7,197 nucleotides of DNA, from the NCBI GenBank assembly GCA_964565125.1, contig CAZMCX010000038.1:1-7197 (forward strand). The letters are read 5' to 3'. Source of the DNA: an uncultured archaeon (lineage in GTDB: Archaea > Iainarchaeota > Iainarchaeia > Iainarchaeales > 0-14-0-20-30-16). The position numbers and the translations under genes are program-made. Positions 111 through 7,197 of the stretch are shown here, in pieces. The first letter of the stretch is position 1. Each line of letters opens with the position of its first letter. The notes below the pieces were generated by a model, which saw only the letters and a list, made by a program, of their open reading frames with translations, was not told the origin of the DNA and did not search any database.

Positions 111-377
111 TTAAAGAAATTTTGCCCTAAATATTAATCCAATTGTAACTACTGTTCCAACTGTTAATAAAAATGCCATTAGTGGATTTGTAAGATAAAA
201 ACATAAAAACCAATTTGATATGCCTGGTAATTTACATACAGTTTCTTGAGCAACCCCTGAAACAATTTCCCCAAAAACATTTGAAAGTATAACATATATA
301 ATTGCACCAATAATAAATTCAATCATAGCAGGAATTTTTAATATAAACTCAATTATTTCTTCAATCATAAGATGCAA
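111..377 (-). CDS. small hydrophobic (predicted 2-3 TM) membrane protein, function unknown
   Basis: An 88-codon ORF is long for AT-rich DNA, where stops are frequent. The translation has long hydrophobic runs (IIEFILKIPAMIEFIIGAIIYVILSNVF; WFLCFYLTNPLMAFLLTVGTVVTIGLIF). The codon at 377 is TTG; the first ATG is at 368 (85 aa). No clear Shine-Dalgarno precedes either start. I recognise no family. Confidence 0.5.
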   Translation of the reverse strand: MHLMIEEIIEFILKIPAMIEFIIGAIIYVILSNVFGEIVSGVAQETVCKLPGISNWFLCFYLTNPLMAFLLTVGTVVTIGLIFRAKFL

Positions 378-618: not shown

Positions 619-1122
619 TTAAAATTTCCAACCTTCTACTCTGCACATTTCAATAATGTTTATACATTCAATATTATACTCTTTACATACAAATGGAATC
701 TTTACTTTATTTCCTCTTAACTTTTCTTCTGTTACTATAATTCTACCTTTTACTGTTTGAAATAATGTTTTTTGTGGGGCGCTTCCCATTTCAACCGCTA
801 AAGCAATAACAAAAGGATCTGCCGCTGCAGTTTCATTGTCAGATTTTGCTAATGACGGATACTTCCTAAGAATTTCTCTGACAATTTCCATTTGTCTTTC
901 ATCTAGTTTCTTAAAAAATTTTTTCTGCTTTTTTGCCCATTTCTTTAATGAGTCATCCATCAAAGAAATCTCCTTAAGAACTTCTCTATGAGAAATTAAT
1001 TGCCCTTTACTAATTAAAGTTTCAACATTTTTCCAAAGCGTAGGAAAAACATCTATTGGGTAACGCCTATTTAACTCTATAAGTGAGCTTGAGTCAATCA
1101 CATAGTAGTTTATGGTCGTCAT
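619..1122 (-). CDS. DUF4411-family PIN-like protein (putative nuclease effector/toxin partner of the upstream ImmA/IrrE-type gene)
   Basis: 167-aa ORF. Its ATG at 1122-1120 overlaps the upstream TGA in an ATGA junction. It has an N-terminal hydrophobic strand ending in Asp (YYVIDSSSLIEL), a central AADPFVIALAV segment, and a C-terminal IIVTEEK...KIPFVCKEY segment. This motif order matches what I recall of DUF4411 (PIN-like fold). That family typically lies immediately downstream of COG2856 peptidase genes, as it does here. Confidence 0.8.
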   Translation of the reverse strand: MTTINYYVIDSSSLIELNRRYPIDVFPTLWKNVETLISKGQLISHREVLKEISLMDDSLKKWAKKQKKFFKKLDERQMEIVREILRKYPSLAKSDNETAAADPFVIALAVEMGSAPQKTLFQTVKGRIIVTEEKLRGNKVKIPFVCKEYNIECINIIEMCRVEGWKF

Positions 1123-2282
1123 TTTTTAGCCTTACTTATTACTTTATCTAAATTCTTTGCTTTGATTGAAAGATAATCTAATGCATCGCTGTGCGTGATA
1201 AAACCTTTATCAACATTATTAACAACAAGAGAAACAAATTTCTGCCCTCTCTCGCTTAGGCACTGTTTGTCTGCTGTCGGCCTAAATCCGCCTTTTTTCT
1301 CTGCTTTTTCTTTTGGTTTTAGAATTTCTGGTTTATATCTTTCAAGAACTGCATCATATTGTTGTTTTGAAATAAAATTTAATTTTGACATATTGTAAAG
1401 AAGCATTGCTTTGCTTACTTTGAATGCTCTTGAAAGCTTGTTTAATGTTTTTGTTTCTATTATAACCTCTTTATTTTTACTAAACTCTGCTTTTGCTAAC
1501 ATATCTGGAAGCAAAAAAGCTGATGAGAACTCATTACACCACTTTTCAACACCAGCAACATTTTTAATAAATAAAGTATTTTCAGGCATACTAACTCCAC
1601 TTTCATTTAGGAGAACATGCCCAACCTCATGCATAAGTGTAAATATTCTCGCTTCAATCAGGTCTTTTGAATTAACAACAATAACAGCAGAGGAATCATC
1701 AACTAAAGTAAATCCTCTTGCGTCTTCCACTGGCATAGGTATTTGGAAAACAATTATGTTTTTGTCCTCAATAATATCTCGTAAAAAATTAAAAACCTCA
1801 TAGGATGTTTTGAGTTTCTTTTGTGTTCCTTCATCAAACTTGAATTCTGCCCTGTATTTTTCAGCTATTTCTTTAGGATTTTCTGATAATTTTATCGTTG
1901 GGATTGCTTTAACTAAACTTGTGTTAAGGTTTTCTGATAATTCTTTGCTTATTTTTTGAAGTCTCCTTGCTCTTCTTATTGCTAATATTGTTTTTTTATC
2001 AAATTTTCCTTCTTTCTCTGGAAGCATTCTATAATCTTTAGGAAGTGGCTTTTCTTTAGGTACTTCAGATAAGAAGAATACAGTAAGCGGTCTCTTGACG
2101 ATTTTGGCTAAATCTTCTAATTGCTTTAAAGTTGGTTTTGTCTCTCTATTGAGCCAACCATTAAGGATATTTTGGCTTATTTTCAGTTTTTTAGTTATTT
2201 CTTCTTCGTTCCAACCCGAACTACCAATAACCCACTTCAAAATTTCGGGTTTGACTTCAACAGTTAATGTTTTTCGTGGCAT
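1119..2282 (-). CDS. XRE-type helix-turn-helix fused to ImmA/IrrE-family (COG2856, Peptidase_M78) zinc metallopeptidase
   Basis: The N-terminus (..ITKKLKISQNILNGWLNRETKPTLKQLEDLAKIVKRPLTVFF) fits the XRE HTH pattern seen at the front of COG2856 proteins. An HExxH zinc motif, HEVGH, is encoded at 1617-1631 in the context FTLMHEVGHVLL. The ORF track extends to a TTG at 2297. I prefer the ATG at 2282-2280, which sits 1 nt after the hsdS stop and 7 nt downstream of GAAGGT (387 aa). Confidence 0.85.
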   Translation of the reverse strand: MPRKTLTVEVKPEILKWVIGSSGWNEEEITKKLKISQNILNGWLNRETKPTLKQLEDLAKIVKRPLTVFFLSEVPKEKPLPKDYRMLPEKEGKFDKKTILAIRRARRLQKISKELSENLNTSLVKAIPTIKLSENPKEIAEKYRAEFKFDEGTQKKLKTSYEVFNFLRDIIEDKNIIVFQIPMPVEDARGFTLVDDSSAVIVVNSKDLIEARIFTLMHEVGHVLLNESGVSMPENTLFIKNVAGVEKWCNEFSSAFLLPDMLAKAEFSKNKEVIIETKTLNKLSRAFKVSKAMLLYNMSKLNFISKQQYDAVLERYKPEILKPKEKAEKKGGFRPTADKQCLSERGQKFVSLVVNNVDKGFITHSDALDYLSIKAKNLDKVISKAKK

Positions 2283-2283
2283 T

Positions 2284-3675
2284 TTACTTACCTTCAATTA
2301 ATTTTTCAACTTCTTGTTTTGCTTTTTCCAATTCTTCTTTTGCTTCTTTCTGCAACTGCTCTGCTTTTTGCATTCGCTTTTTCACTTCTTCAGCGATTTT
2401 ATTTTGAACAGCAAGAAAGGGGAGAGGGATTTTAATGGCTTCTGTTGTTTCTCTAATTATCCCCATGATTGTCCCACCCGTAATATCTCTATTTATTTGC
2501 ATTTGACCTAATTGTGATTTAAGAATTGAAAATACGAAGTATGGATTTGCTTCTTGTTTAACTCTCATTAAAAAGACATGTTCATTTATGTTTACTTCTT
2601 CAAAAGGATAATCTTCAGGAACAATCCCTATTTTCCCCGTTGTTGCCCCATCTTTTACTATAATTATATCTTTTCTCTGAACTTTACTTTTTAATTGTTT
2701 TTTATGAAATTCCATTGGTATAAACTTTAAGTCGCTTGTGGCAATTGTTCCGTCCCTTAAAACATGCTCACCACCCAAACTTGGCACACCTTCGCTAATT
2801 TGTCTTACACCACCTTTTGGTCTTTGTCCGCTTTCTAATTTTTCAGCAATATATTTCAACTCCTTAACCTCAAACTTCCCTTTCTTTATAGCTTTCTCAA
2901 CTTCTTTAAACTTCGGCTGGTAATAATAAGAGTCTGCCCTTTTGTTCTGGACGACTTCATCAGAATTAACTATATAAACCATTTTATCTTGTAATTCAGG
3001 CAGTTTTATCCCCAATTCATTAAGAACATGATTATTTATTGAGTCTAAGAGTTTCTCGGCTTCAGATTCTTTGAATCGTTTAAGAGAATATGCTTTGTCC
3101 ATTAATGCGACGATTTTATCTTGTATTTCTAAAGGTGGGAGAGGGATTCGTATATTTTTAATTGCAGGAATCGTAATATTTCCTTGTAAACCTCCTGTTT
3201 TAGAACGAGTTGTTTGTAGTTTACCTAATCTACTATTTAAAAATAAACTTATATATTTGGGATTGATATTTTTATCTTCTTTTAATCTAAACCGAATCAT
3301 AAAAGAGCCAAAAGCAAATTTATCTGCTTCTTTAGGCACTCTTGCAACTACTCCGATAGTCCCACTTCTAGAAATTAAAAAATCACCCTCATTTACATAA
3401 TCAGAATCCATCAATTCTGATTTTTTAGCATAAACTAAGTTATCTAATTTTACTTTGTTTTCTTGTAGATTTTGGATTCTTAAAAAGGGAATTTCGCCTT
3501 TAGGATAGGCTTTTACAGAAGCACCATAATTAATTTTCTCGATTAAATCTCCTAGTTTTAATGTTTTCCACTTAGATTTTTCAAGATTTTTGATTAACCA
3601 AAATTCAGGTCTGTAAAAATGAGGGTCTATCCTATTCTCAACTTCATCAGCATAAATTGTAAAACATTCGGTCAT
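2284..3675 (-). CDS. hsdS: restriction-modification specificity subunit (HsdS-like, two target-recognition domains)
   Basis: 463 aa with the duplicated HsdS layout. TRD1 starts ..VENRIDPHFYRPEF and TRD2 starts ..NKRADSYYYQPKF. Each TRD is followed by a conserved spacer helix (IRIPLPPLEIQDKIVALMDKA.. and IKIPLPFLAVQNKIAEEVKKR.. plus a coiled-coil tail). AGGAG lies 8 nt upstream of the ATG at 3675, and the gap to the hsdM stop is 3 nt. Confidence 0.9.
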   Translation of the reverse strand: MTECFTIYADEVENRIDPHFYRPEFWLIKNLEKSKWKTLKLGDLIEKINYGASVKAYPKGEIPFLRIQNLQENKVKLDNLVYAKKSELMDSDYVNEGDFLISRSGTIGVVARVPKEADKFAFGSFMIRFRLKEDKNINPKYISLFLNSRLGKLQTTRSKTGGLQGNITIPAIKNIRIPLPPLEIQDKIVALMDKAYSLKRFKESEAEKLLDSINNHVLNELGIKLPELQDKMVYIVNSDEVVQNKRADSYYYQPKFKEVEKAIKKGKFEVKELKYIAEKLESGQRPKGGVRQISEGVPSLGGEHVLRDGTIATSDLKFIPMEFHKKQLKSKVQRKDIIIVKDGATTGKIGIVPEDYPFEEVNINEHVFLMRVKQEANPYFVFSILKSQLGQMQINRDITGGTIMGIIRETTEAIKIPLPFLAVQNKIAEEVKKRMQKAEQLQKEAKEELEKAKQEVEKLIEGK

Positions 3676-3678
3676 AGT

Positions 3679-5451
3679 TTATACTCCTGTATACGTTTTA
3701 GGATTTCTTAAAAAATTTTTCCATTCCCCTAACATATTAGGTAAATCATTAACGTCTGGTCTTCCAGTTGCGTCATAGCCAATATGTTTGGTAATAGCCA
3801 TAAAGATAGGATAATTACTTGCTTTCTCTCCTTCCCTTTTCTTCTGTAAAAATAATAATGATGCTTTAACACCTGCACCAGAGGATACAAATGCCAACTG
3901 TGGCAGAGAGACAACTGCTAATATTTTTGCATTTTTATTAATAAAATCTCTCACATATTGAAGTGAAGAGTTGGTTAATATTCCATCGGGTAAAACTATG
4001 CCCATTTTTCCACCAGATTTTAATAAATCTAGACATCTCTCAATAAATAAAATTTCAGTTCTTTGTGCTTTTCTATCCTTTCCTAATTCAAAATTATTTA
4101 AGACTTCTTCATCTTTTATAACTGCACCAAAAGGCGGGTTTGTAAGTAAAACGTCATACTTATTTGGTTTAATCTTTTTTGCAGGGTCAAAATTTTTATA
4201 ATTGGTTAAGGCGTTATTACATTCAATATTGCTATGTCCATCTTCATGGATAACCATATCCATCATAGCAACACGGGCAATTCTATCATTGATTTCAATT
4301 CCAAAAATCTGTTTATGTGAAAAATCCCAATTTAATCTGTCAATTGTTTCTTTATCTTCTTTATATTTTTCAGTAACTTTATTGAGAACATGTCTCATTG
4401 AATAAAGCAAAAATCCGCCACTACCACAAGCAGGGTCAATTAAATAATCGTCTTCGTCTGGGTCAATAACTTCAACCATAAACTCTACAATTTGTCTTGG
4501 TGTGAAATATTGTCCATACTCGCCTCTAAACAATTTTCCTAAAAAGTTTTCAAATGCTCTGCCCTTTGCATCTAAATCTGTTGTTCTCAAAGAAATATCC
4601 TGTAGATGTTCAACAATTCTAAAAATCATTGTGTCTGGCAGTTCTAATTTTGCCTTGAAAACTTCAGAATTTTTAGATTGGACAAATTCATATCTTTCTT
4701 TTACTCTTTTTGCTACATTTTTTGGTTCTTCGTATGTTCCAATTTGGAATTCATAATATTGTCCATGAGGTGTGAATCTTTCATCATATAATTTTGTGAT
4801 AAGCAATTTACTTATTTCATCAAAAGCGACAGCAGGATCTCTTTTCCCACCTTCCCAAATCTCATCATGGCAAAGTTGAAATTTATTACTCAATTCATTA
4901 AAATTAGCTTTTCTTAAATCCCATTCTGGATCACCTCTTTTATATCTATATTTAGGCTCTTTGCCATATTTTATAGGAATATCAGCTATTCTATATTTTT
5001 CTAATTTTTCAATTGTAGAAGGATGTTTTTCTAAATTATAAGCTAACCTTTCATTATCACATACCACCCACAAATATTTTGCATTCAATAAATTTGCATT
5101 ACCTAGCCCTTCTCTTTTCGCTTCTTCTATATCTTTTTTTGTAGCATTTGCTTTTGTTTCAACAACAATAAAAACAATTTCCTTTTCGTCGTCTTCATAA
5201 ATGACTATATCTGCTGGTAGTTTTGGTTCTCTTCTTGGCGGATAAACTTCTGTATTTATTCTTTTTTCTGGATATTTATATTTTTCAATTAACTCAAAGT
5301 AAGATCTTGCACGTATTGGCTCTTCTGGATCCTTAAAATTATATGACTTTTTTACTGTCTTGTATGTTATTTTACCGTCCCTTACAATAAATAACCCTTG
5401 TTTCTCACCGAGTGCTATTATTTCCTCTGTTAGTTTGTATTCTTTTGGCAT
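3679..5451 (-). CDS. hsdM: gamma-class N6-adenine DNA methyltransferase (HsdM / N6_Mtase-like) with an N-terminal PD-(D/E)xK, HSDR_N-like nuclease-fold domain
   Basis: The MTase motifs appear in gamma order: GQYFTPR, then motif I DPACGSGGF (4411-4437), then motif IV NPPF (4129-4140). The N-terminal ~180 aa is extra compared with a plain HsdM. It carries LPAD(85)IVIY...IVFIVVE(102)TK(104) at 5152-5211, a textbook PD...ExK arrangement as in HSDR_N. Residue numbers follow the 594-aa track ORF. That ORF starts at a GTG at 5463. The ATG at 5451-5449 lies 1 nt after the upstream stop and 8 nt downstream of GGTGG, so I prefer it (590 aa). Confidence 0.9.
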   Translation of the reverse strand: MPKEYKLTEEIIALGEKQGLFIVRDGKITYKTVKKSYNFKDPEEPIRARSYFELIEKYKYPEKRINTEVYPPRREPKLPADIVIYEDDEKEIVFIVVETKANATKKDIEEAKREGLGNANLLNAKYLWVVCDNERLAYNLEKHPSTIEKLEKYRIADIPIKYGKEPKYRYKRGDPEWDLRKANFNELSNKFQLCHDEIWEGGKRDPAVAFDEISKLLITKLYDERFTPHGQYYEFQIGTYEEPKNVAKRVKERYEFVQSKNSEVFKAKLELPDTMIFRIVEHLQDISLRTTDLDAKGRAFENFLGKLFRGEYGQYFTPRQIVEFMVEVIDPDEDDYLIDPACGSGGFLLYSMRHVLNKVTEKYKEDKETIDRLNWDFSHKQIFGIEINDRIARVAMMDMVIHEDGHSNIECNNALTNYKNFDPAKKIKPNKYDVLLTNPPFGAVIKDEEVLNNFELGKDRKAQRTEILFIERCLDLLKSGGKMGIVLPDGILTNSSLQYVRDFINKNAKILAVVSLPQLAFVSSGAGVKASLLFLQKKREGEKASNYPIFMAITKHIGYDATGRPDVNDLPNMLGEWKNFLRNPKTYTGV

Positions 5452-5452
5452 T

Positions 5453-6292
5453 TTATTCCCCACCTTCTGGGATTTTTTGATTTAACCATGGCATTTTCTC
5501 TTTAGGAGTAACTGCGTACCATCCTGTATTAATATTTCCTTTAATGGCTTGCTTAATTAATTCACAAGATTTTTTGATTGCCCCTATTACTGTTCGGAGG
5601 TCTTTTTCATTTTTAATTTTTATTTCACCCCAGTTTTCATGAAATTTAATATTTTTTACTCCTTCTATTTTTTGTTGATTTGTATAGATATATAAAACCA
5701 TCAATTTTTTTCTAAATTTTAAATATACAAAATTCTTTTCTGGAGAATAGTAGGTTATTGCAGTTTTTGCATAATGGTGATAAATTTCTTCATTTATTTT
5801 TAGAATAGCTTTGTCTAATTTTAAGAATAAATCTTGAATATTTTTAGAAACATTCTTTCTTTTTATATGATGTTCTAAATCATACTTACTCTCTTCTTTT
5901 TTTACTTCTTCTTCACCGAAGGGTTCTGGTTCCATATTCTTGATTTCTTCTTTTAATTCCAACACAGGAACGGGACATTCTTTCCAATCATGCACCCAAC
6001 AAACAACTAAATCACATTTTCTTCCTTTTTTGATATCGTCTAAATGTGACTTAAAACCAGAACTATTATATTCAAACTCTATAGAAATTTTTTCCCACCC
6101 CTTTCCTGTCCTTCTTCTTGCTATGCAATCTGGGTACCCGGTTTTAATTTCTTCTACGTACATGTTGAGATCTTTAAGAATCTTTCCAAACAATAGAACC
6201 ACCCCCTGTTCATTAACGGGGCTATAGACCATCCCTCTAAAATTGATTATACTTCCAACAACAGATTTTTCTTCATATTTTTCTTCTTCCAT
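5453..6292 (-). CDS. two-domain hypothetical protein: N-terminal restriction-endonuclease-fold-like domain, acidic linker, C-terminal DUF5655-like domain
   Basis: 279 aa. AAAGGGGA lies about 7 nt upstream of the ATG at 6292, and the gap to the radC stop is 3 nt. The N-terminus reads ..VEEIKTGYPD(55)CIARR..KISIE(72)FE(74)YNSSGFK(81)SH..CDLVVCWVHDW. That places acidic and Lys residues on alternating strand-like segments, as in PD-(D/E)xK folds (inference). Residues 115-135 form a Glu/Lys-rich linker. The C-terminus (..LFLKLDKAILKINEEIYHHYAKTAITYYSPEKNFVYLKFRKKLMVLYIY..) resembles the DUF5655 pattern as I recall it. Confidence 0.7.
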   Translation of the reverse strand: MEEEKYEEKSVVGSIINFRGMVYSPVNEQGVVLLFGKILKDLNMYVEEIKTGYPDCIARRRTGKGWEKISIEFEYNSSGFKSHLDDIKKGRKCDLVVCWVHDWKECPVPVLELKEEIKNMEPEPFGEEEVKKEESKYDLEHHIKRKNVSKNIQDLFLKLDKAILKINEEIYHHYAKTAITYYSPEKNFVYLKFRKKLMVLYIYTNQQKIEGVKNIKFHENWGEIKIKNEKDLRTVIGAIKKSCELIKQAIKGNINTGWYAVTPKEKMPWLNQKIPEGGE

Positions 6293-6295
6293 TTT

Positions 6296-7015
6296 TTAAT
6301 CCCCTTTAATCAAACCTTTATCTAAAAAGCTTGTATAGTTATCATTTCCTATTATGATGTGATCTAATACCCTTAAACCAACCAAATCACAGGCTTTTAT
6401 TAACCTATTTGTTATTTCTATGTCTTCTTTTGTTGGTTCTGATTCCCCACTTGGGTGATTATGAACAAATATCAATGCTGAAGCGGATTCTCTAACCGCT
6501 TCCTTAATTACTTCTTTTGGGTCTACAATACTGCTACTTAAACTGCCCTCAGAAAGAGTTATGTCTTTGATAATCTTATTTCTTCCATCTAATAACATCA
6601 CTTTGAATATTTCTTTTTTAAAATCTCTCAAATAAGCCTTATAATAATCGACTACATCTTCGTTTGTTCTAATTCTTTTTCTAATCCCTGATTTTTGTCT
6701 TAGAAATCTTTTTCCTATTTCTAAAGCTGCCTTTATTTCAGCAGCTTTTAACATACCCACGCCCTTTATTTTGCATAACTCTGAAATACTGACAGAATCT
6801 AAATCTCTAAAACTACCAAATTCCATTTTTAATTTTCTAGCTAGATCAATGGCACTACTTTTTTCTTCACTTTTTCCTTCGCCAGTTCTTAAAATAATAG
6901 CCAATAGTTCAGTATCAGAGAGTTTATCCGGCCCATATTTTATCAAACGTTCTCTTGGTCTTTCATCTTCAGGCCACTCTTTAATTGTAGGTTTATATTT
7001 ACCTTCTTTTTTCAT
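6296..7015 (-). CDS. radC: RadC-family protein (COG2003; N-terminal helix-hairpin-helix region plus C-terminal JAB/MPN metalloenzyme domain)
   Basis: 239 aa. The N-terminus ERPRERL..G...LSDTELLAIILRTG....A..LARKL...FGS...L....ISELCKIKGVG..KA..IKAALEIGKR is the canonical full-length RadC N-terminus. The JAMM-type motif HNHPSG is encoded at 6446-6463, followed by EPTKEDIEITNRL and VLDHIII. AAGGAG lies 10 nt upstream of the ATG at 7015. Confidence 0.9.
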   Translation of the reverse strand: MKKEGKYKPTIKEWPEDERPRERLIKYGPDKLSDTELLAIILRTGEGKSEEKSSAIDLARKLKMEFGSFRDLDSVSISELCKIKGVGMLKAAEIKAALEIGKRFLRQKSGIRKRIRTNEDVVDYYKAYLRDFKKEIFKVMLLDGRNKIIKDITLSEGSLSSSIVDPKEVIKEAVRESASALIFVHNHPSGESEPTKEDIEITNRLIKACDLVGLRVLDHIIIGNDNYTSFLDKGLIKGD

Positions 7016-7151
7016 TTTTCTCTAACTCCTTTTCAACAAAAATCTCAAACTGTCTTGAAATAACCAATCCCTTCTTTTTACAGTATTCTTTATAAGAATT
7101 ATAGAGTTTTTCATCAACCTTTAGAGTTATATTTTTGCTTCCCATAGTCAT
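6999..7151 (-). CDS. small ribbon-helix-helix (CopG/Arc-like) DNA-binding protein; candidate operon controller or antitoxin-like regulator
   Basis: Not in the supplied ORF track, presumably because it is below the length cutoff. Hand translation from the ATG at 7151-7149 to the TAA at 7001-6999 gives 50 aa: MTMGSKNITLKVDEKLYNSYKEYCKKKGLVISRQFEIFVEKELEKNEKRR. The pattern is beta-strand (ITLKVD), helix, a Gly turn, then a second helix. This closely parallels CopG-type RHH proteins. It overlaps the radC start by 17 nt. No obvious SD is present, so the transcript may be leaderless or have a short leader. Confidence 0.6.
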   Translation of the reverse strand: MTMGSKNITLKVDEKLYNSYKEYCKKKGLVISRQFEIFVEKELEKNEKRR

Positions 7152-7186: not shown

Positions 7187-7197
7187 ACTGAAAGACG

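Follow-up and report, generated by a model that had tools for sequence, protein, structure and literature searches.

A predicted Type IIB-like restriction-modification core with a recurrent RadC partner in a putative mobile defence island of an uncultured archaeon

Seven minus-strand open reading frames (ORFs) fill positions 619-7151 of the window analysed here, the 7,197 nt of contig CAZMCX010000038.1 (GenBank assembly GCA_964565125.1) from an uncultured archaeon. In the middle of this array lie a methylase (M) gene and a specificity (S) gene of a restriction-modification (RM) system, and no gene for HsdR, the helicase-nuclease of classical Type I systems, accompanies them. This raises the question of how such a locus would restrict DNA, and what the five other genes do beside it. 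The initial annotation had taken all seven genes as one composite defence system. When all seven proteins were compared by tblastn with 160 related loci, the exact set was found only in near-identical contigs and its parts turned out to be modular, which rules out a conserved seven-gene system; a mobile island assembled from modules describes the locus better than a single seven-component machine does. With moderate confidence we explain the window as the greater part of a mobile defence island of 8.2 kb that was inserted at the 3' end of polD and consists of a Type IIB-like RM+S core, a RadC partner and swap-in modules, an explanation that builds on the observed gene order, domains, catalytic motifs, recurrence statistics and island boundaries.

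The key to the missing HsdR lies in the 590-aa protein that had been called HsdM. Profile searches of the window proteins against Pfam, PADLOC and NCBIfam placed in it an HSDR_N_2 domain at aa 42-151 and an N6_Mtase domain at aa 294-541, and the methylase motifs DPACGSGGF and NPPF are present. Its best relative in the PDB is RM.BsaXI (8w0p, E 4e-34), with a match over aa 25-542 that spans both nuclease and methylase. The residues E68, P79-A80-D81 and E98-T99-K100 are invariant in the alignment of RM proteins, including relatives only 40% identical, and if a slip of about two positions is allowed at the PD motif, E68, D81, E98 and K100 align with E73, D90, E105 and K107 of BsaXI. BsaXI is a Type IIB enzyme that acts as an (RM)2S complex and needs these four residues for cleavage; alanine substitutions abolish it, and the authors describe the residues as conserved across Type IIB enzymes (PMC11997821). 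M and S are thus not, as first stated, the only canonical RM parts of the locus, as the M polypeptide (the RM protein in the following) carries an intact PD-(D/E)xK endonuclease domain. HsdR would not be needed because this domain is fused within the same chain, and the accessory genes, once proposed to replace restriction, have nothing to replace when the RM protein holds its own nuclease site.

The S subunit (463 aa, encoded 3 nt 3' of the RM gene) contains two Methylase_S stretches (Pfam E 2e-32), pointing to two target recognition domains (TRDs), and matches the PADLOC model Specificity_I at E 1e-51. We predict that the RM and S proteins form a BcgI/BsaXI-like Type IIB system. With these enzymes they share the N-terminal PD-(D/E)xK domain joined to a gamma-class N6-adenine methyltransferase, the separate S subunit with two TRDs and the lack of HsdR. 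The RM protein differs from that of BsaXI in being only about a quarter to a third identical to it and in lacking the C-terminal knob and paddle of the 916-aa BsaXI subunit; the size of BcgI is closer to that of the RM protein in the window. A further difference is the upstream radC gene, which is not part of the Type IIB systems described in the literature searched. Cleavage on both sides of a bipartite site and the (RM)2S composition would extend to the present proteins by analogy. Classical Type I systems have the same M and S families, and genes for accessory nucleases or for abortive infection may be inserted into the hsd cluster or next to it, as with the PrrC anticodon nuclease that is held latent by EcoprrI, but there the nuclease resides in HsdR, whereas here it is fused to M. 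The layout of M and S without R, with an N-6 DNA methylase of 600-900 aa, is also found on plasmids of cultured bacteria, for example an IncF plasmid of Klebsiella. An RM locus without HsdR becomes ordinary once the methylase-fused nuclease is recognised, and a search with standard Type I models would list loci of this kind among the incomplete systems.

The surrounding sequence leaves no room for an hsdR gene next to the window. Five near-identical metagenome contigs carry the gene for the S protein, and the longest of them (L001, from an 18.2-kb contig) extends the window on both sides. The upstream flank of the cluster holds the eIF-2 beta and DUF424 genes together with two small ORFs. On the downstream side there is an ORF for a hydrophobic protein of 88 aa, and the gene for the large subunit of archaeal DNA polymerase D (PolD DP2) lies there in convergent orientation to the cluster. 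Judged from eIF-2 beta and PolD DP2 the host is an archaeon, probably of a DPANN lineage. No HsdR-like gene is present on the 18-kb parent contig, where 6.5 kb upstream and 3.5 kb downstream of the window were checked. The reported absence of HsdR from the cluster therefore holds on the larger scale too, and the suspicion that the gene could lie beyond position 7197 is settled by the housekeeping genes that flank the island on both sides. The same eIF-2 beta/DUF424 and PolD DP2 flanks rule out an incomplete Type I system whose hsdR gene would follow immediately beyond the window.

The limits of the island are marked by a 21-nt direct repeat (20 of 21 positions identical) that brackets a segment of 8.2 kb. 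The reverse complement of the right copy corresponds to the last seven codons of polD, LGKWFG-stop. It is the sole such repeat in the 16.5-kb locus, and any repeat of this kind was found in just 2 of 200 shuffled sequences. Between the copies are the seven genes and three small ORFs. Going by its position at the 3' end of polD, we interpret the repeat as an att-like signature of site-specific insertion into the end of a gene.

Further, we wanted to know which of the accessory genes travel with the RM gene. The RM protein was aligned with two relatives, metagenome contigs were scanned with short peptide patterns from these three RM sequences, and the window proteins were mapped onto the 80 loci so sampled. 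RadC lies upstream of RM in 37 of the 63 informative related loci, from bacteria as well as archaea, 19 times directly adjacent and 18 times with an insert of 0.46-1.7 kb. Most of these cases belong to the clade of RM proteins with 33-44% identity to that of the window, in which 34 of the 49 loci with readable upstream sequence have a RadC gene on the same strand (17 directly adjacent to RM, 17 separated by 0.46-1.7 kb). The clade of 60-88% identity contributes only 3 of 14 loci, the window included. The RadC of the window is 60-66% identical to those of the distant RM clade, and because of this resemblance the front and back halves of these operons seem to recombine. A reciprocal search gave the same picture: three of four RadC homologues with 71-78% identity (L181, L183 and L184) lie 1-2 nt upstream of an HSDR_N-methylase and S pair, the triad in L183 following directly after the archaeal gene gatD, and the fourth (L186) stands alone with no RM nearby. 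Over the distant bacterial and archaeal lineages, RadCs that adjoin RM+S are 60-78% identical to the RadC of the window. By gene neighbourhood we thus take RadC to be a recurrent partner of this RM family and RadC-RM-S to be its recurrent core, and for radC the supposed co-occurrence of the accessory genes with RM is borne out.

The RadC protein itself is full length, with UPF0758_N (E 4e-28), HhH and JAB/MPN+ domains. It matches the Pfam RadC family at E 5e-43 and scores 247 bits with the NCBIfam equivalog PRK00024, for which the cut-off is 180. In the JAMM metal site H185, H187, S189 and D198 are invariant among 11 relatives, and E156 is nearly so. It agrees with the RadC/YicR family (UPF0758) in its full architecture, its score above the equivalog cut-off and the retained JAMM motif, and differs from it in being encoded in an archaeal, putatively mobile island, in one apparent operon with a Type IIB-like RM. 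Literature searches for a link of RadC to RM, S-subunit or hsd genes, which were incomplete in coverage, returned no description, and the link to a Type IIB-like RM appears to be undescribed. Nearly all bacteria have RadC, yet what it does has been a matter of dispute for decades (PMC3239186 cites "RadC, a misleading name?"), and a tight, recurrent operonic link to a biochemically tractable Type IIB-like enzyme offers a concrete handle on it. We tentatively speculate that RadC might be a functional third component of a distinct and widespread RadC-RM-S class of Type IIB-like systems, present in bacteria and archaea alike and with dedicated insertion slots on both flanks of RM for backup genes that include an ImmA/DUF4411 abortive module triggered when restriction is inhibited, although we think this rather less probable than not. 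In such a class the HhH-JAB enzyme may control or complete restriction, for example by processing DNA at the cut site or by proteolytic tuning of the RM fusion while the system becomes established in a new host.

Some of the sampled RM homologues differ in size from that of the window. The ORFs of 1059-1068 aa in L098, L099 and L104 seem to be RM homologues fused in frame to S or extended at the C-terminus, and the same applies to homologues of about 840 aa in L089-L095, L114, L150, L156, L157, L162 and L163. Single-chain RMS and two-gene Type IIB layouts may thus have given rise to one another repeatedly. Scans of viral contigs returned a single RM relative and no relative of the DUF4411 protein; therefore the module does not seem to be mainly viral.

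The gene between radC and the RM gene behaves differently from RadC. The family of its 279-aa product has 1020 matches across a wide range of bacteria and archaea, and those listed are 46-80% identical. Its C-terminal half is a DUF5655 domain in 27 of 28 members, and the N-terminal 120 residues have no Pfam model. Sequence and profile searches of the family against the PDB gave nothing meaningful. In an AlphaFold model (mean predicted local distance difference test score, pLDDT, of 81) the N domain, about aa 10-120, has an alpha-beta-beta-beta-alpha-beta topology, which resembles the restriction-endonuclease-like core of the PD-(D/E)xK superfamily. The invariant residues include E28, D55, E72 and E74, of which D55 is at the start of strand 2 and E72 and E74 lie in strand 3. 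In BamHI, Glu stands where this motif usually has Lys. Foldseek searches with the isolated N domain retrieved Bax1, BamHI, SwaI, Hjc, HindIII and further nucleases of the restriction-endonuclease fold, all of them weakly (E >= 0.009, TM-score <= 0.44), and the protein matches the PADLOC candidate PDC-S18 at E 2e-9. The N domain seems to represent a nuclease-like family that has yet to be classified. At least two architectures contain it, one with DUF5655 and one with a single or a double HARE-helix-turn-helix (HTH) domain, and the genes concerned are usually solitary; genome loci L057-L085 match only aa 8-125 of the 279-aa protein.

In 80 genomic loci the gene for the homologue of the 279-aa protein mostly stands by itself among unrelated neighbours that differ from locus to locus, and a gamma-class methylase is found within 10 kb in about 10 of them. 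The co-occurrence with RM that was supposed for this gene is accordingly not seen as a recurrent pattern, and the same solitary homologues and mixed neighbours rule out the 279-aa protein as an obligate RM partner. Among the RM-related loci no full-length 279-aa gene stands next to RM besides that on the window's own contig; the genome scan with the 279-aa protein itself gave one such case, L043, with a full-length homologue 213 nt upstream of an RM+S pair. The N domain, fused to two HARE-HTH domains, is found between RadC and RM in L062, L065, L109, L125 and L143. The same RadC/RM slot is taken in other loci by an OLD-family AAA_15 ATPase-TOPRIM protein, a proteasome-like pair, an HNH protein or small unknown proteins, and the slot between RM and S by YhcG/DUF1016, AbiJ or a four-gene ParB-like and PAPS-reductase-like set, the latter recognised only by reading the sequences. 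Slot genes of the defence type were noted between RadC and RM in L112, L116 and L162 and between RM and S in L062, L122 and L125, and also in L153/L154. From this slot usage the 279-aa gene is most simply an interchangeable swap-in cargo between RadC and RM, and the locus family would use its RM genes as anchors for interchangeable defence cargo.

Downstream of S follows a pair of overlapping genes. The 387-aa protein has a Peptidase_M78 domain (Pfam E 6e-15) and an HTH_3 domain (E 9e-6), with an HEVGH zinc motif read from the translation. It is matched by 16 PADLOC models of RmrA (best E 1e-20, aa 22-315) and reaches 53.7 bits with the NCBIfam spr1629 repressor/antitoxin, which has a cut-off of 335. 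The DUF4411 protein (Pfam E 3e-35) has the invariant acidic residues D10, E51, D102 and E132/E133, and its sole PADLOC match is to PDC-M24B (E 0.0058), with none to an RmrT model. We predict the 387-aa protein to be an RmrA-like antitoxin or regulator and DUF4411 to be a PIN-like nuclease acting as the toxin. In the combination of HTH and zinc peptidase that defines RmrA the pair resembles RosmerTA; it departs from RosmerTA in the DUF4411 protein, which no RmrT model recognises, and in the spr1629 score far below the cut-off. Its arrangement is that of a published set in which DUF4411.1 lies downstream of HTH-DUF955 fusions, predicted to be a three-component toxin-antitoxin, with the same fused HTH and M78 gene ahead of a DUF4411 gene; PIN-like toxins coupled to Type I subunits were noted in the same study (PMC5499597). 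What sets the present pair apart, along with those in four other DPANN contexts, is its place behind a nuclease-methylase fusion gene, a link that we did not find described.

The pair, overlapping by ATGA, was intact in all seven look-ups of homologues (DUF4411 66-90% identical), and close DUF4411 homologues are labelled Nanoarchaeota or Micrarchaeia. In five of eight contexts in DPANN archaea, the window counted and the sample being small and phylogenetically close, it comes directly after a nuclease-methylase fusion gene or system: a Type IIG gene in four cases (913-969 aa in three of them, 1338 aa in the other) and, in the window, the Type IIB pair. In the remaining three contexts it stands alone, once beside an integrase. 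It is found in none of the 80 RM-related loci, and because of this absence we do not count ImmA/DUF4411 as part of the RadC-RM-S family. The proposed co-occurrence of the pair with RM hence fails for the relatives of this RM gene and holds for nuclease-methylase fusions in DPANN archaea. That the pair recurs with RM systems of more than one type points either to a functional link, in which it would stabilise the system or kill as a back-up once restriction is blocked, or to a common habit of insertion. An ImmA/PIN pair placed repeatedly after nuclease-methylase fusions in these poorly studied archaea is the pairing expected of a back-up, PrrC-like layer of immunity. Units of a Type IIG fusion, an ImmA-like gene and DUF4411 were noted at L169 2893-7504, L174 893-5501, L176 1100-5504 and L172 1764-7504. 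The unit in L174 lies between an amidase gene (probable gatA) and gatB, that in L169 among hydrogenase-related genes, and that in L176 is followed by a gene with a TIR domain.

The operon is headed by a gene for a 50-aa protein that matches RepB-RCR_reg (E 0.006) and RelB/DinJ (E 0.007) weakly, both below the cut-offs. It is probably a small DNA-binding protein of the ribbon-helix-helix (RHH)/CopG-like kind, and the likely regulator of the operon. In these operons a small DNA-binding gene usually comes first. Bacterial relatives of the locus have a small HTH_17 gene in this position in about 14 loci, and on a Collinsella plasmid a RelB/DinJ-type gene is found directly before the RM fusion gene, like the RHH gene here. 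HTH_17 (excisionase-like) genes were also seen at both ends of several bacterial RM loci, sometimes inverted, and proteins of up to 546 aa that resemble large serine recombinases adjoin the S or the HTH_17 gene (L108, L128-L130, L139, L148, L161, L117, L126 and L158). The arrangement suggests small mobile or invertible cassettes.

Taken together, the genes suggest a working scheme, in which all enzymatic activities, the single transcript and any cross-talk between the modules are what we infer. Two RM subunits would assemble on one two-TRD S subunit, and the complex would methylate a bipartite target in the host and cut unmethylated incoming DNA near the site, needing no HsdR motor. RadC, encoded behind the RHH regulator, would act on DNA or on the RM protein and so assist or control restriction. 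The 279-aa protein would be a self-contained nuclease-like module in the variable slot between RadC and RM, and HTH-ImmA/DUF4411 an autonomous module of the toxin-antitoxin or abortive-infection type after S, which probably stabilises or backs up restriction.

A number of observations weigh against the mobile island with RadC as partner of a Type IIB-like core. The 8.2-kb island contains no integrase, and many of the loci counted come from related metagenomes and cannot be taken as independent events. For the nuclease fold of the 279-aa protein there are weak Foldseek matches (best E 0.009), and no sequence family covers the domain. The nearest RM relatives with readable upstream sequence (84-88% identical; L086, L088 and L100) have neither RadC nor the 279-aa gene; because RadC is missing there, this RM lineage does not depend on it, and the genes of the window seem to have come together recently. 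Bacterial RadC-RM-S loci are, in addition, often flanked by HTH_17 genes and by what appear from a reading of the sequence to be large serine recombinases, and RadC could be a backbone gene of a mobile element instead of a partner of RM. Pure juxtaposition would then explain the locus: RM+S would be self-sufficient, the RHH gene, radC, the 279-aa gene and ImmA/DUF4411 would be cargo or backbone sharing a promoter, and RadC would serve the mobile element, for example in DNA processing during transfer or establishment. Apart from the flanking recombinases and the nearest relatives without RadC in cis, this is favoured by the solitary RadC homologue in L186, by the att-like repeats that bound the island, and by the fact that JAB domains of the RadC type are typical of conjugative and other mobile elements (PMC3239186, PMC5512222). 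We consider it possible but not probable. A backbone gene would be expected beside the recombinase and not at the start codon of RM, yet RadC always lies on the same strand, either immediately 5' of RM or with the cargo slot between them, and with gaps of 1-24 nt. The triad moreover occurs without a recombinase, as in L183, where it abuts gatD, and the island of the window is without one as well.

An integrated defence machine of seven components, in which the accessory proteins replace restriction or are required for it, would account for the single strand, the junctions of -17 to +3 nt with their internal Shine-Dalgarno (SD)-like motifs and the lack of HsdR, and multi-gene, methylation-based systems with RM-like M and S proteins do exist. 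MADS is such a multi-gene operon, and the RM and S proteins give partial matches to its MAD2 and MAD5 (317 and 152 bits), but these scores are far below the NCBIfam cut-offs of 720 and 400, and RadC matches mad4 only at E 0.0075. MAD6, MAD7 and MAD8 are mandatory in the detection model of the MADS authors (bioRxiv 10.1101/2023.03.30.534895). No PADLOC or NCBIfam match to MAD6-8 was obtained among the seven proteins, and with MAD2 and MAD5 below the cut-offs membership in MADS is ruled out. The absence of these defining proteins, the restriction of the full set to near-identical contigs, the intact nuclease site of RM and the free recombination of the components with other partners all make an integrated machine very unlikely, as does the fact that ImmA/DUF4411 was met in 0 of 80 RM-related loci and a full-length 279-aa gene beside RM only in L043 outside the window's contig. 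Even harder to believe is that the 279-aa protein is the real restriction endonuclease, with a BamHI-like fold and a DNA-binding domain, cognate to an M+S pair whose HSDR_N domain is vestigial. Its gene does directly precede that of the methylase, only 1 nt apart, Bax1, BamHI and other restriction nucleases are the closest matches to its predicted fold, the acidic residues are invariant and the L043 homologue precedes an RM+S pair by 213 nt. The nuclease motif of RM is, however, fully conserved, and RadC-RM-S loci have other genes or nothing in the slot concerned. In a search limited to gamma-class methylases, about 70 of 80 homologues also had none within 10 kb, and they have no recurring neighbour, whereas a Type II nuclease with no cognate methylase detected nearby would be expected to be lethal.

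The positions of the genes and other features are collected in Table 1. The seven packed minus-strand genes were described correctly from the start, the junctions being exactly -17, +3, +1, +3, +1 and -4 nt in operon order (5' to 3'), and the public contigs have their genes called from these same ATG codons. Purine-rich SD-like motifs, reported before for most junctions, are present 7-10 nt before every internal start, within the preceding gene: GGAG for RadC, GGGGA for the 279-aa gene, GGTGGGG for RM, GGAG for S, AGGT for ImmA and AAGG for DUF4411. The first gene has no such motif. The spacing alone points to co-transcription and translational coupling of the seven genes.

Table 1. Positions of the genes and other features of the island. 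Positions refer to the window unless L001 is given.
Feature	Position	Strand	Remarks
RHH-like gene	6999-7151	-	50 aa
radC	6296-7015	-	239 aa
279-aa gene	5453-6292	-	279 aa
RM gene (first called hsdM)	3679-5451	-	590 aa from ATG; alternative GTG at 5463
Endonuclease domain of RM subunit	4999-5328	-	aa 42-151; predicted catalytic E68, D81, E98, K100
S gene	2284-3675	-	463 aa
ImmA-like gene	1119-2282	-	387 aa from ATG; alternative TTG at 2297
DUF4411 gene	619-1122	-	167 aa; ATGA overlap with ImmA-like gene
Candidate archaeal TATA box TTTATAAA	7175-7182	-	centred about 27 nt before the first ATG
Right repeat copy	51-71 (L001 13605-13625)		3' end of polD DP2
Left repeat copy	L001 5410-5430 (outside window)		at stop codon of DUF424 gene
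Small island ORF	111-377	-	88 aa, hydrophobic; no Pfam match
Small island ORF	L001 5621-5878		85 aa, hydrophobic; no Pfam match
Small island ORF	L001 6012-6296		94 aa, soluble; no Pfam match

Upstream of the first gene, the spacing of TTTATAAA would fit an archaeal leaderless promoter, though in DNA of 70% A+T. Scans for sigma-70 promoters and intrinsic terminators gave counts at or below the shuffle expectation, with bacterial-type models that are inapplicable to an archaeon, and a count of oligo-T runs was uninformative, T-runs being frequent inside genes. Antisense ORFs of 84-130 aa and small flanking ORFs had no Pfam match, and Rfam and tRNA scans of the window gave nothing. The G+C content is uniform at 0.28-0.32 across the window. 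In the spacer between the DUF4411 gene and the 88-aa ORF (about 480-600), the patch gaaggactaagccccctgtcgtcac, which matched neither Rfam nor tRNA models, is by eye richer in G+C.

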